64,000 bases of DNA from Chiloscyllium plagiosum. Lineage: Eukaryota. Where the stretch lies: the NCBI RefSeq assembly GCF_004010195.1, contig NC_057718.1:68722746-68786745 (forward strand). The letters are read 5' to 3'. Shown piece after piece: positions 21,301-27,300 of the stretch; positions within the stretch are counted from its first letter, which is position 1, and the number at the start of each line of letters is the position of its first letter. The position numbers were made by a program, and so were the translations under genes. The notes under the pieces were generated by a model. That model had not been told where the DNA came from. It searched no databases and worked only from the letters and a program-made list of their open reading frames with translations.

Positions 21301-24300
21301 GGTCTCCACTCTAAAAAGCAACCCTCCAGCACCACCTTCGAGGCAGTTCTGTATCCAAATGGTTTGTTCTGTCTGTATTCTGAGATCTAACCTTTGCTAA
21401 CCAGTCTACCGTGAGGAACCTTGTTGAGTGCCTTACTGAAGTCCATATAGATCACATCCACCATCCTAAGATCTAGGGATCATAAATGTGTAACAGGAAT
21501 ACAAAGATCCCAATGCTGACCCCTGGGAGATTCTTCTTCAAACCTTCCTCCAGCCTGAAAAACTTTATAATGAATATTGTTTCCTTGTCGATAGTTGCTT
21601 GGGGTATTGTTGCAGCCTATTTTTGAACCAGGTCAATGTTTGCAATTCTCCACTGCCAAAAAAAGGCTGACAAATAATTGCCAGTGTCTTTGCAATTTCT
21701 ATTCCTCCTTCCCTCAGTATTGTTAGATGCAGCTTGTCCAGTACAGGCACCTCGTCATTTATAAGTAGACAGATCTGGCCACATCTGCAGAGAGAAACAG
21801 TTAATATTTCAAGTCCAATGTGACTTTTCTTTGTAATTGTGTTTCTCTCTCCACAGATGCTGCTAAATCTGCAGAATTTCTCCAGCACTTTCTCTTCTCA
21901 TCTTCGATCTCTGGCATCCACAGTACTTTGCTTTCATTTAAGCACAGAAAACCAGCCAATTCCTCCTCATTGATATTGAACCTTTTTAGTGACTGAATTT
22001 CCTCCCTTTACTATGGCCTGTGTTGCATCCCCTTGCTAGCTAAGACATATGCAAAGTATTCACTAAAGGTCTGAGTCAAGCCTCCATTTAAACCACGACT
22101 CTGCCCTAATCCTCATTTTACCATCGTTTTACTCTTTACATGTAAAGAAGACTTTGGAATTCTCTTCTACGTTACCTTTCAGTCTCTTCATTGCACCTCT
22201 TTTCTTTTTTTATTTATTTTTTGCCCACCCCTCTAAACCTTCTAAGTACAGCCTGGTTCTCAATTGTATTTTCTACTTGACAACTGTCATAAATACGCTT
22301 TTTCTTTATAATTCCTCCTTTAAAAGCAATAAAAAATTGAATTTGATGTACATGGGAGAGAGAATCCTTCAATATAGGAAAATCTGGGTGCCCTGGTACA
22401 CAAATCTCAAAACAGTGGAGAGTAATGGGATTACTGATTGGTTATTAATCCACAAATTGAGCTAATGTTCTGGGCACCTGGGTTTGAATCCCACCATGAT
22501 GGAATTTGAAATAATTTTTTAAAAAATCTGAAATGAAGAATCTACTGATGACCGGAAACCATTGGCGATTGTCAGAAAAACCGATCAGCCTCACTAATGT
22601 CTTTCAGGGTAGGAAATCTGCCATTCTTATCTGGTCAGGTCTTCATGTGACTCCAGTTCCCAGCAGTGTGGTTCACTCTTAACTGCACTCTGAAATGGCC
22701 TCACAAGCTATTCAGTGATTGATAGAACCACAAAGTCTCAACAAAGAAATGAAACCAAATGGACTACCTGGCGTTGACCAAGGCACCAGAAAAGAAACCG
22801 CACTGTCAACGCTGCAAAGTTCTTTATACTAACATCTGGGGCTAGTGTCAAAATTGAGGGAGCTATCTCTCAGACTAGCCAAGCAACAGCCTGACGTAGC
22901 CATGCTCGCAGAATCTTAGCTTTCAAACAATGTCCCAGACATTGCCTCCATCATCCCTGGATATGTCCTAGACCCAGCACAAGTGGCAGCACCATGATAT
23001 ACAGTTGTGAGAGAGTTGCCTGGAGTCTTCAACATTTAAGTATTATTAATGGAAGACATGAAAGTCCAGCTGTGATAGTATCAGTAAGCGTGTATTTTAA
23101 ATGTTGTAACTGCATCTCCCACTTCCTTTGGCAGTCACTCTATACAAGTGTGAAAAAAGTTGCCCTTCCGATCCTTTTTGAATTTTGACCCCCTCACCTT
23201 TAAAATTATGCCCTCTTGTTTTGAACACTCCTACTCTAGAGAAAAGACCGTTGCTATTCACCTCATCTATGCCCCTTTTAATTTTATAAACCTCTCTCAA
23301 GTCACCCCTCAACCACCTCCTGTTCAGGGATTTAAAACTGCTTGCTTGTCCAGCCCCTCCTCAAAACTCTTCTCCCCCAGTTCCGGTAACATCTTGTAAA
23401 TCTCTTCTGCCAATTTAATAACATACTTCCTAAAGCAGAGCATCCACAACTGCATGCAGTACTCCAAACACGTAAAATGAAGGCAAGTGTGCTAAATGCT
23501 GCCTTCATTTATATGTCTACTTGTGATGCTATTTTCAAAGAGCTGCAAAACAGACCCCTAGGGCTCTCTGTTCAACAACATTCCCCAGGGCCTTTCCATT
23601 AACTGTGTAAGACCTGCCCTTGTTTGTCTTACCAAAATGCAAGACCTCAGATTTATCGAAATTAAACTTCATCTGTCACTCCTCAGCCTGTTGGCCCAGG
23701 TAATCAAGATCCTGTTGTAATCTTTGACAATCTTCTTCACTGTCCAGTATATCACTAATTTTGGTGTCATCAGCAAACTTACTTACTATGCTTCCTATGA
23801 AGTATTGCTTTCACATTGAGTTATGCGGCACACGCTATGCTAAATGGGACAGACTTTGAACAGATCTAGCAATACAAGACTTAGCGTCCGTGAGGCACTG
23901 TGGGCTGTCAACCACAACAGAATTGTACTGCACAATCTGAAATCCCGTGGCCTGTTTAGACCCTACTTGACCATTGCCATCAAGGCAGGGGATCAGCTCT
24001 GGATCAATGGAGAGTGCTGGAGGGCATATCAAAAGCAACACCAGACAAAAAATGTGTGTTGTCTCGACCAACAGATCAGATCTAAGCTTTGTAGTCCTGC
24101 CATGAAGGAATGTTGGTTGACAATTAAATGACTCGCTGGAGTAGGAGCGTTCATCAATGTAGGAAGAGTCCAGCACATCATTGCAAAACATAAGGCTGAA
24201 ATTTTCAATCAGAAGTGCAGAGTGGATGATCCATCTCTGTGTGCCCCAGTCATTTCCGAACATCTCAGATACCAGTCTTTGGTCAATTCAGTTCATTTCA

Positions 24301-27300
24301 CGTGATATCAAAAAATGGTTGGGGGCACTGAATACTGCAAAGTTGATGGTCCTTGACAACATTCTAGCAACGATACTGAAGACTTGTGCTCCAGAACCTG
24401 CTGCTCCCCTAGCCAAGGTTTTCCAGGACAGTTACAACACTGGCACCTATCTAACAATGTGGAAAACTGTCCAGATATATCCTCTACACAAAAAGCAAGA
24501 CAAATCCAACCTGGCCAATTACTGCCCATGAGTTTACACTCAATCGTCAGTAAAGTGATGGAAGATGAACAGCACCTACTTAGCAATAACCTGCGCACTG
24601 ATGCCCAAATTGAGTTCTACCAAAGTCACTCAGCTCTTGACCTCATTATATCCTTGGTTCAAACATGGGGAAACGTACTGAATTCAAGAGGTGAGGTAAG
24701 ACTGCCAGCCCTTGACATCAAGGCCATATTTGACAACAAGGAGCCTTAGCAAAACTGGAATCAATGGGTATCTGGGAAAAACTCTGCACTGTTTGGAGTC
24801 ATACTTGGCATGTAGGAAAATGGTCATAGTTGCTGGTGGTCAGTCATTCCAGGTGCAGAACATCTCCGCAGGGTAGTGTCCTAGGCCCAATCACCTCCAG
24901 CTGCTTCATCAATGATAGTCCCTTCTTCATAAGGTCAGAAGTGGGAATCTTTGTCAATGTTTGCATAATGTCCAGCACCATTACCTGCTACTCGGATACT
25001 GCAGCAGTCCATATTCAATTGCAAGAGGATCCGGACATTACCTAGGCTTGGGCTGACAAGTGACAAGTAACTTAGTATCACACAAATGCCAGGCAATGAC
25101 CATCTCTAATACGAATAATCTAATCACTGCCGTTGACATTCAGTGGTGTTGAATCCCACAACTATTAACATCCTGGGGGATACCATTGACGTAAATACAG
25201 TGGCTACAAGAGCAAGTCAGAGGGTAGGAATGCTGTGGCAAGTAACTCACCTCCTGACTCCCCTAAGCCTGTCCACCATCTACAAGGAAAAAGTCATGGG
25301 TGTGATGGAAAATTCCAAACCTGCCTGGATGGGTGCAGCTCCAACAACACTCAGGAAGCTTGACACCATCCAAGACAAAGCAGCTTGCTTGATTGCTTGT
25401 GGACGTGATGCCATTCGTTCTTCCTCCACCGACACTCAGCAGCTGCAGTGTGTATTATCAACAACATTCCCTGCAGAAATTGGCTAACCAACCTAGACTG
25501 CACCTTCCAAATCCATGACCACTTCCATCTCGAAGGACAAGGGCAGCAGATACAGGGCAAAACCATCAACTGCCATATCCCCTTCAAGTTGCTCACCATC
25601 CCAATTTGGAAATACATTGCCGTTCCTTCAATGTCACTAAATCAAGATCCTGCAATTCCCTCCCTAAGTACGTTGTGGGTCAATCTATGGCAGTTGGACT
25701 GCAGCAGTTCAAACAGGCAGTTCAATATTTCGTTTTCAAGGGCAACTAGGGATGGGCAATAAATGCTGGCCAGCCAAAGACCCCTCAGCATGCAGGTAAA
25801 GCAAATAATTAAGAAGGAACATAGAATGCAAGGGCGTGAATTATAAAAGTAGGAAAGACTTATTGCAACTATACAACTGAGATGACACCTACAGTACAGA
25901 TCATCTTATTCAAGAGGCGACATACTTGTATTGATGGCAGATTCATTCAATTGATTCCAGGGCAAAGGGGTTATCTTATGAGGAAAGGTTGATTAAGTTG
26001 GACTAGTATACATTGGTGATTAGAAGAATGAGAGGTGATCTTAACGAAACATTTAATATTTTAGGGAGGCTTGTTCAGCTCGGTGTTGTGAGGATGTTTC
26101 CCCTCAGAGCAGCATGCAAAACCAAAGGGCAGTGTCAGAATACAGAAAATATGTTCCACTTTGAAGATGAGGAGGAATTATTAGTTTAAAAATGATGGCA
26201 GATCTCTACTCCTACCCCCACATTCTAGTAGAATGGATATATTGGTCCAATGATACTATCAGGATGTCCTAAGAACTGTATTGGACTGTTTGAAGATGTT
26301 CGAATGATTCCATGCTAGAGGCAGAAAGAAAGGGGCTAGAAATAATTGAAATGAAGCTTCACAGTGTCAATGAAATAAAAAATAATCAATTTGGATTTGC
26401 TTATTTAATTGAAGTTGGTTCTTCATCTTGGCTTTTCTGTCCCTTTTCTAAATTTGCTGTTGTCATATGTATGTAAGTTTGGATATGAATTTTTTGACAG
26501 TCCTGTTGTATACAGCAAACAAATTGAATAGTACTATACCGTGCCCTGCATGTAATCTGCCAAATGTAACTCATATCCATTGTTACTCCTCACCCTCACT
26601 CTTTACTACTGGAAATATTAAATCTTGCATATACTACTTCCCCTTCAGTTAAGAGAGTCCCTCATCCAAACTGATTCCAGTGTACGGACAGACAAACTTT
26701 AGTCTCTGTTGCAGGGCAGGGTAGCACAGAACTGGAGGTAGCAACAACCAACAAATGAGGGAATGGCTGCATGTCATTGGGTCTATGGCAGAGATACTGA
26801 TCGCTATAATTGGAGCAACATCAGTGAGTTGTGGCCAGCAGAAGGGTTGAAAACATTGAAGATTATAGTATGTTCCTACTTAATGCACCTTGCATCCCAT
26901 TTTTCTCCCATTCCACAATATTTTCCGATATCCCAGCCACCAAATGGTGTTAGCATGCACCTCTTAATCTACGTGCACCAGGCCACACTCTTATCAACGT
27001 AACCCTACCCTCTATTTTCAGCTACTCATGAACTGTCATCTGGCCTGGCAGTGTTGTGAGAACGTGAGTCTAAAGGAGCAGAACACTGATTTTCATAATG
27101 TCATATTTAGATTCCATCTCAGATGCTCGAACTCTTGAGCATGGCATAGTAGGACAATTTACATGTTTTGAATCTTGCGTTTGAGAAAGAGAAAGGATAG
27201 TGCATAAGGTACTGTCAGTGTGCACACATCTTCTGCTAAAGAGGCTTCAGATAAGGAAATTGATATATGAAATAGAGAAGAAAACTGATAGATGTGCACA

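Follow-up and report, generated by a model that had tools for sequence, protein, structure and literature searches.

The block at 22413-25786 of the 64-kb window (the whole stretch of 64,000 nucleotides that was analysed) is a dead copy of a 3.3-kb, single-ORF Zenon LINE of sharks and rays, and its tRNA-like head is likely to be the internal RNA polymerase III (Pol III) promoter of the whole element. We put the probability of this reading, which is drawn from sequence, at roughly 0.55. That the block is one near full-length copy of a single-ORF endonuclease-reverse transcriptase (EN-RT) LINE of the Zenon type was mostly confirmed. Its assignment to the elasmobranch lineage of Zenon, in the CR1 group, is based on its 5′ match to published elasmobranch consensuses and on the published tree (PMC13343379); the first-pass annotation had guessed this clade correctly. 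Judged from the copies and consensuses compared, shark and ray Zenon LINEs carry the tRNA-like head as a feature of the whole family.

The block runs in the order head, linker, endonuclease, RT and tail, with the following parts.

22413-22497, plus strand: tRNA-like part of the head; set by eye against the published consensuses, it lacks about 8-10 nt at the 5′ end
22498-22716, plus strand: head body, common to the SINE (blastn)
22717-22818, plus strand: LINE-only linker, including the ATG at 22749; high-copy in reads and joined to head and EN in paralogous contigs
22819-23036, plus strand: N-terminal part of the APE endonuclease, with stops and a frameshift after the first motif (tblastn, hhalign)
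23809-25749, plus strand: remainder of the single ORF (linker, RT, C-terminus and TAG at 25747-25749), with many stops, frameshifts and deletions (tblastn; weak Pfam RVT_1)
25736-25786, plus strand: 3′ tail, common to the SINE and about 20 nt shorter than the SINE tail

The first endonuclease motif, VLYTNIWG, lies at 22819-22842, and the endonuclease start was aligned by hhalign with five EN-RT relatives (E 2e-4, probability 45%). When the endonuclease piece was used as a protein query, none of 295 candidates matched. It had been claimed that a head of about 300 nt leads directly into the ATG at 22749 and the endonuclease start. The length of the head, a B-box-like site at 22482 and the endonuclease start downstream were all found, but the ATG cannot be shown to open the frame of the endonuclease. 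Its frame differs from that of VLYTNIWG and hits a stop before LVSKL. The linker is short of about 10 nt after 22795, as compared by eye with HypSab_Zenon-1, and in the SquAca_Zenon-2 consensus the ATG is in frame with the endonuclease. RT and a 3′ tail do follow, as had been stated: RT and the C-terminus are colinear with single-ORF proteins of 935-1000 aa (best tblastn E 5e-27, P0022). The colinear EN-RT proteins bear both Pfam RVT_1 and Exo_endo_phos, which points to a single APE endonuclease-RT ORF. The Pfam RVT_1 match of the block itself is weak (E 0.006 on 24740-25078), and one of five window pieces was recognised as RT. Pfam also gave one spurious ANXA2R match on the window pieces. No ORF1 was found, with about 400 nt between the 5′ end and the endonuclease motif and single-copy read depth upstream; this too agrees with the first-pass annotation, yet it is ordinary for Zenon, which is already in print without ORF1 (PMC13343379). 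Poly(A) was seen neither on the LINE copy, with its shorter 3′ end, nor on the SINE. No shark-type copy of the family was found in viral contigs or, with an EN motif as the query, in metagenome contigs.

The block lies in a host CR1 and is itself interrupted by another CR1 fragment.

22330-22412, plus strand: host CR1 LINE fragment, left flank, C-terminal region of the RT; its translation resumes on the right flank
25787-26150, plus strand: host CR1 fragment, right flank (translation; joined-flank alignment)
About 23037-23808, minus strand: nested CR1 fragment, matched by blastn from 23092 to 23799 with CR1 copies elsewhere

The insertion was made at a single point of the host CR1, which is about 3-4 nt shorter there and shows no TSD. 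When the flanks were joined and aligned with the CR1 copy at 5100-5500, the alignment spanned the join and scored 88 against 80 for the best shuffle; of the six CR1 copies tried, the other five failed to beat their own shuffles. The translation and the joined flanks thus support the claim that the host CR1 reads continuously across one inserted unit, but the block is broken by the nested minus-strand CR1. At that point the Zenon ORF is short of about 130-160 codons, as estimated from tblastn positions, including much of the endonuclease. Three further copies of the family are present in the window.

61152-64000, plus strand: second copy, 5′-incomplete and split in three (61152-62019, 62586-63049, 63950-64000); its identity with the first copy is 72-76%
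28140-31187, minus strand: third copy, fragmented (30757-31187, 29283-29508, 28140-28297; tblastn, sequence comparison)
40432-41033, plus strand: fourth copy, 3′ fragment, 60% identical

The linkage of head and ORF was then compared across the family. Read depth rises at about 22430 from single-copy upstream to thousands downstream. In run X17, contigs of summed depth of about 560-720 cover 22717-22729, against 17.6 in the unique flank, and in run X19 the head end upstream of 22742 is carried by three contigs. Among 15 of the 126 joints in paralogous contigs there were at least four head-linker joints, in six contigs whose runs come from three organisms, along with at least two linker-EN joints; most joints have sides shorter than 30 letters. 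No paralogous contig spanning head to EN in one piece was present among 24 of 10830 pieces. Over the first 400 nt, compared by eye and with no identity computed, the block is colinear with seven published elasmobranch consensuses. The head stands at the start of all seven and of none of the three hagfish and coelacanth Zenon consensuses (PMC13343379). In the loci of non-shark relatives, no tRNA was found in 32 and no upstream pair of A- and B-boxes in 30.

These results indicate that head and ORF are consistently linked family-wide, and no full-length copy came to light that has an ORF1 or some other 5′ UTR. A SINE-LINE chimera (one of the origins first proposed) or a nested insertion, as a one-off, is rejected because of this linkage. 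The locus is indeed a nest of insertions, in which a SINE might have landed beside an unrelated element or a LINE within one. Such an artefact is extremely improbable given the single tail, the continuous host CR1 and the same junction in paralogs and in 7/7 consensuses. Insertion of the LINE into a SINE was also rejected, because only one tail is present.

The A- and B-boxes are intact in the published consensuses. In the LINE copy the B-box at 22482-22490 has one mismatch and the A-box (about 22416-22428) at least three; the A-box is exact only in the SINE. No tRNA model was found in the LINE or SINE head by ARAGORN or Rfam, both copies being decayed, and the folds of both window heads were no better than those of shuffles. 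By eye, tRNA arms can be made out in a published consensus, and an anticodon-like stem-loop in that of CarCar_Zenon-1. One more piece of the head was found elsewhere in the window.

1469-1548, minus strand: decayed remnant of the tRNA-like head, standing by itself (nhmmer E 1e-7)

In the first 400 nt of the elasmobranch consensuses, read by eye, an A-box lies at position 6-11 in 7/7 and a B-box is present in 6/7. Since these consensuses are more than 84% alike (PMC13343379), the boxes may have been kept through shared ancestry and slow decay and not by selection.

Pol III terminators were then sought as T-runs. TTTT is absent from the first 400 nt of 7/7 elasmobranch consensuses and present in that of 3/3 from hagfish and coelacanth; at least two TTTT runs occur in 30/30 loci of non-shark relatives. 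On the sense strand of the family fragments there are 8 TTTT in 5659 nt (1.4 per kb), compared with 44 in 6547 nt (6.7 per kb) for the CR1 copies. This check came out in part as proposed: TTTT is scarce on the sense strand, and the count of 8 is below the 17.0 that base shuffles would give (P 0.010), but with dinucleotide shuffles, which would give 12.9, the deficit falls short of significance (P 0.078). Some headless relatives can match it (2 against 5.1 expected in L042, 18 against 33.3 in L023). None of the five T-runs covered by another copy is common to copies, and no second copy covers the T4 runs at 24202 and 25733 of the first copy. At 22515 the LINE copy has a T6 run of its own, absent from the read-derived loose ends at 22496/22498 and from the published consensuses. 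Taken together, the boxes of the consensuses and the scarcity of TTTT are compatible with Pol III transcription.

A LINE RNA has to be translated, a point in favour of a capped Pol II RNA. The full-length RNA could accordingly be the Pol II product of an internal promoter in or overlapping a head that is fixed on the LINE, with the boxes a relic or used for short transcripts only and the low TTTT compositional. The weakness of the T-run deficit against dinucleotide shuffles, and its match in some headless relatives, would suit this explanation. We consider it unlikely, as in 7/7 consensuses an intact A-box follows the 5′ end by 5-10 nt, the position that a tRNA-type promoter predicts, and as no T-run is common to copies. 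Alternatively, the element may be co-transcribed from host Pol II promoters, with the tRNA-like head as a processing signal at which a cut of the RNase P type would release a defined 5′ end. This would account for the fixed 5′ end at the tRNA-like start and fits the stem-loop of CarCar_Zenon-1; an analogue exists in the self-cleaving ribozymes of other single-ORF LINEs, 5′ ribozymes being listed for six LINE clades (Kojima 2018, PMC5786205). However, it leaves the scarce TTTT without a reason, and the decayed window heads show no tRNA fold, so that we regard it as quite improbable.

We next examined the SINE that shares the head and tail, of which one copy is present in the 64-kb window.

55681-55979, minus strand: head+tail SINE-like copy, with head and tail common to the LINE

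The SINE and LINE heads are 66% identical over 161 nt (blastn E 8e-7) and the tails 83% over 36 nt (E 3e-5). The SINE had been described as the same head joined directly to the same tail at 55701-55968. Both shared parts were confirmed, but the copy spans 55681-55979, and about 22 nt are missing within the head and more at the junction. Its A-box is exact at 55969 and its B-box at 55916 has one mismatch. The copy is flanked by an 8-nt direct repeat (55987-55980 and 55678-55671); a repeat of at least 8 nt arose by chance in 340 of 20000 random pairs. In the SINE the head breaks off immediately ahead of the linker, and the LINE sequence resumes within the last ORF codons. Six RNA reads leave the head at 22716, and their smeared consensus matches the tail at 17 of 30 letters by hand count. 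In the raw RNA run X21, of which about 2% was read, there were 101 reads, nearly all less than 90% alike.

These junctions, which resemble those of bipartite deletion derivatives (PMC5786205), would suit deletion from the LINE but are not decisive against the opposite order. In that order a SINE of head, body and tail came first as a parasite of an older Zenon through its tail, and a template switch put its head in place of the LINE 5′ UTR, making the SINE the donor and not the deletion product. Exchange of modules between SINEs and LINEs is well documented (PMC5499810, PMC7245038), and the head is absent from relatives outside elasmobranchs. For the origin alone, this has a substantial chance of being correct, though somewhat below even. 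Such an origin is compatible with the Pol III mechanism.

Under the Pol III reading, TFIIIC would bind the A- and B-boxes and Pol III would start about 5-10 nt upstream of the A-box, at the site of the consensus 5′ ends. As terminators are scarce, it could read through to the end of the element. The uncapped RNA would undergo non-canonical translation, the conserved ATG probably opening a short overlapping frame only. By target-primed reverse transcription starting in the tail, the protein would copy the RNA that encodes it, so that each full-length copy brings its promoter along. The short head+tail element would be the same RNA minus the coding middle, mobilised in trans. In its fullest form, this proposal makes the autonomous Zenon LINE, with thousands of full-length shark and ray copies, a Pol III unit with a captured tRNA promoter, a 3.3-kb terminator-free RNA translated without a cap or in-frame AUG, and a SINE that is that RNA without the ORF; to this we give not quite even odds. 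A SINE is defined by its Pol III head, a LINE by its capacity to code for protein. If the whole LINE were a Pol III unit, the usual promoter distinction between the two would be erased. A shark and ray LINE with a fixed tRNA head offers a natural test of whether Pol III can make a long protein-coding RNA that is translated. Near-intact copies exist (intact ORFs in 1/1419 copies in whale shark and 3/612 in stingray; PMC13343379), and the question is therefore testable.

In the literature searched, which did not include Repbase, Dfam or subscription papers, no description of a headed LINE was found; this does not establish its absence from print. The abundant 310-nt SINE of the window, which we take to be HE1, had no blastn match to the Zenon head. 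HE1 and the LINE HER1 also form a pair with a tRNA-headed SINE in the same hosts, sharks and rays, but are entered as an ordinary SINE-LINE partner pair (table in PMC3747384). SacSINE1 and the Deu-SINEs of cartilaginous fishes are likewise tRNA-headed and rely on a CR1-group LINE. Unlike the window SINE, SacSINE1 has L2-2_CM as tail donor and a body with a Deu domain (PMC5499810). A SacSINE1/Deu identity of the head was dropped, as by eye it is unlike the Deu domains of AmnSINE1 (PMC7245038 supplement) and hagfish; SacSINE1 itself was compared by description.

The closest systems are the elasmobranch Zenon LINEs themselves (CarCar_, RhiTyp_, ScyCan_ and HypSab_Zenon-1, SquAca_Zenon-1/2/3; PMC13343379), which over their first 400 nt have by eye the same head, linker and ATG context. 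Their consensuses are 3.1-3.3 kb long in 6/7 and 2.9 kb in 1/7. They have the single APE-RT ORF without ORF1 that is found in the block, which differs in nothing structural and is a decayed copy. The words 'tRNA' and 'promoter' each occur 0 times in the main text of that paper; thus it takes up neither the head nor the deficit of T-runs nor the partner SINE. RTE-1_DAn and related elements are LINEs with a tRNA-like sequence matching SINE2 elements, as in the headed Zenon, but belong to the RTE clade; the passage that describes them is silent on the position and function of that sequence (PMC5786205), and RTE-1_DAn is named in no further paper of the literature searched. Bov-A/Bov-tA, from Bov-B, and SINE2-1_ACar, from Vingi-2_ACar, are likewise short elements that join the 5′ part of a partner LINE to its 3′ part and have a tRNA head (PMC4494074, PMC5786205). 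The sources of bipartite derivatives listed by Kojima 2018 (PMC5786205) are RTE, Ingi, Vingi and R2 only, with the CR1 group not among them, and the Zenon pair would offer a direct route for the birth of a SINE from a CR1-group LINE by simple deletion. In Bov-A/Bov-tA and SINE2-1_ACar the tRNA head is on the deleted derivative only, whereas in shark Zenon the autonomous LINE is headed too.

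The LINE copy at 22413-25786, of the Zenon type (CR1 group), is set in the repeat-rich vertebrate DNA of the window. Its parts are arranged as follows:

22413 to ~22497, plus strand: tRNA-like part of the head
to 22716, plus strand: head body
after 22716 and before the first EN motif, plus strand: linker, with ATG 22749
22819-22842, plus strand: start of the APE endonuclease (EN), first motif
~23037-23808, minus strand: nested CR1
after the nested CR1 to TAG 25747-25749, plus strand: remainder of the ORF
ending at 25786, plus strand: 3' tail

The nested CR1 is an addition to the anatomy drawn in the first-pass annotation. 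In tblastn, the coding pieces follow the same order as single-ORF proteins 935-1000 aa long (best E 5e-27, with protein P0022), and the EN piece matches the N-termini of single-ORF relatives (E 2e-4). Both RVT_1 and Exo_endo_phos (Pfam) were present in all three relatives scanned. From the tblastn positions, an estimated ~130-160 codons are missing at the nested CR1, and the copy is dead. The sole named protein match was a zebra shark predicted plexin-domain protein isoform (P0004), whose last 40 residues are an exonised piece of the C-terminus of this LINE. This match, together with the likeness of the element to published shark and ray consensuses, places the host among the elasmobranchs.

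Head and LINE had been proposed to have inserted as one unit, and the flanking sequence bears this out. The host CR1 translation is interrupted at 22412 and picks up at 25787. Six other CR1 copies were tried against the joined flanks. One aligned across the junction, leaving a 3-nt gap, and scored 88, where the best of 100 shuffles reached 80; the remaining five had diverged so far that none outscored its own shuffles. No TSD was found at the block. Insertion of the LINE into a SINE was ruled out because only a single tail is present.

A previous report described Zenon LINEs in five elasmobranchs, all without ORF1 (PMC13343379). In the sequences shown there, the head opens all seven elasmobranch consensuses, compared with none of three from hagfish and coelacanth (by eye, first 400 nt). 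All seven then continue as our copy does, with its linker and the sequence around the ATG (by eye); the ATG itself is kept in six and absent from SquAca_Zenon-3. All seven have an A-box beginning at position 6-11, and six of the seven an intact B-box. That report surveyed 59 to 2313 copies per family in the six rows seen, with an intact ORF in almost none. The Zenon family and its missing ORF1 are thus already known, and the head sits in those data but is unremarked in the main text, where the words "tRNA" and "promoter" are absent. The literature searched, with Repbase and Dfam outside that search, held no description of the headed LINE.

Reads from four sequencing runs were compared with 22300-23060 at 80% likeness. 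Head, linker and EN were each high-copy, and depth was single-copy upstream of ~22430. In run X3, peak summed depth (which is not copy number) was ~37,000 for the head, 8,600 for the linker and 32,000 for EN, against 16 for the flank. The 15 joints listed of 126 comprised four head-linker, two linker-EN and nine within the head, mostly with sides of <30 letters. Among those listed, head-linker joints came from six contigs and three organisms, and in run X17 this junction was covered by contigs of summed depth ~560-720. No single paralog piece spanned head to EN among the 24 listed of 10830. The head-linker joints in paralogs and the seven headed consensuses agree that head and ORF are linked across the family. 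These results indicate that the tRNA-like head is genuine and belongs to the family as a whole, within a LINE lineage that was already known.

The head was also said to lead directly into an ATG and the EN start. The order of head, linker and EN stands, but in this copy the ATG is not in the EN frame: from 22749 it runs into a stop and misses the first motif. EN is regained only via two lesions of this copy, ~10 nt absent after 22795 (compared with loose ends of four contigs and the HypSab consensus) and 1 nt absent after the motif. In HypSab_Zenon-1, the sole elasmobranch consensus showing the whole interval with an ATG, the motif begins, by hand count, 80 nt past the ATG and in another frame. 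In SquAca_Zenon-2, which is shorter and has deletions, the ATG is in frame over the part shown. The sequences lean towards an out-of-frame ATG, and translation may be controlled by a frameshift or by a short upstream frame that overlaps the EN frame (22749-22842).

T4+ runs, putative Pol III terminators, number 8 in 5659 nt of Zenon fragments in the window (1.4 per kb), compared with 44 in 6547 nt of CR1 copies (6.7 per kb) and a window average of 6.8. Base shuffles gave 17.0 expected (P 0.010) and dinucleotide shuffles 12.9 (P 0.078); the significance of the depletion depends on shuffle type. Neither the loose ends derived from reads nor the published consensuses as shown carry the T6 of the head. 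Of seven runs in aligned Zenon bodies, five were covered by another copy and none of these was shared. We favor, at a probability of about 0.55, a reading in which Pol III would transcribe the element in full from its A/B boxes. The reasons are that terminators are scarce and that, in thousands of copies, the 5' end is kept a short way ahead of an intact A-box. The transcript would be translated cap-independently, perhaps from a non-AUG start; initiation on such RNAs is called an open question in PMC3894237. Speaking against the terminator argument, some headless relatives are equally depleted against expectation (2 runs against 5.1 at metagenome locus L042), though all 30 examined retain at least two. 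Transcription by Pol II from a promoter within the head appears unlikely, and read-through transcription with tRNA-like processing of the head quite improbable.

The SINE had been described as the same head joined to the same tail. The shared parts were found, at 66% over 161 nt for the head and 83% over 36 nt for the tail; the span is 55681-55979 (minus strand) rather than 55701-55968. Its A-box is exact, its B-box has one mismatch, and the LINE tail is ~20 nt shorter than its own. An 8-nt repeat flanks it, which chance yields in 340 of 20000 trials. Six RNA reads depart from the head at 22716, and their smeared consensus agrees with 17 of 30 letters of the tail (hand count); an amplified family is only hinted at.

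Other repeats were observed in the window. RT (reverse transcriptase) fragments at 53602-53940 and 45116-45229 scored well against Zenon-like proteins (E down to 1e-17), with no DNA-level match to the headed family. Inverted-repeat pairs (2083-2307/3271-3497 and 3100-3218/3432-3547, ~92% identity) flank a CR1 fragment and suggest that the DNA was inverted locally or duplicated by fold-back. Another SINE family, younger and ~310 nt long, is probably HE1; it comprises 14494-14824 and ~12 further copies or fragments, of which the better are 85-95% alike, with no match to the Zenon head. Palindromic, MITE-like repeats of 130-260 nt match their own reverse, one lying within a second Zenon copy.

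14494-14824, 43607-43923, 57592-57911, 36974-37279, 59655-59956, 54139-54458, 48086-48408: examples of the ~310-nt SINE copies and fragments
28666-28885, 10675-10805, 47743-47950, 57998-58126, 62052-62147, 63608-63872, 32431-32567, 11329-11458: palindromic MITE-like repeats

Among the 75 metagenome loci with relatives, ARAGORN found no tRNA in the 32 examined, and none of the 30 checked for boxes had an A+B pair upstream. Many carry one ORF of ~950-1050 codons, and any ORFs ahead of it are short. Given these headless relatives, the head looks like an elasmobranch acquisition. As to origin, a matter separate from mechanism, we lean towards the headed LINE coming first, with a SINE-first order somewhat less probable.

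Known systems were compared using excerpts that also included PMC7245038, PMC4824008, PMC3747384, PMC11481361 and 10.1101/443036. SacSINE1 joins an L2 tail to a Deu body (PMC5499810). RTE-1_DAn, a LINE with a tRNA-like sequence mentioned once in the excerpt of PMC5786205, may be a precedent. Nearest in arrangement are Bov-tA and SINE2-1_ACar, in which, as excerpted, the tRNA head is confined to the short derivative (PMC4494074, PMC5786205), whereas in Zenon the LINE bears it too.
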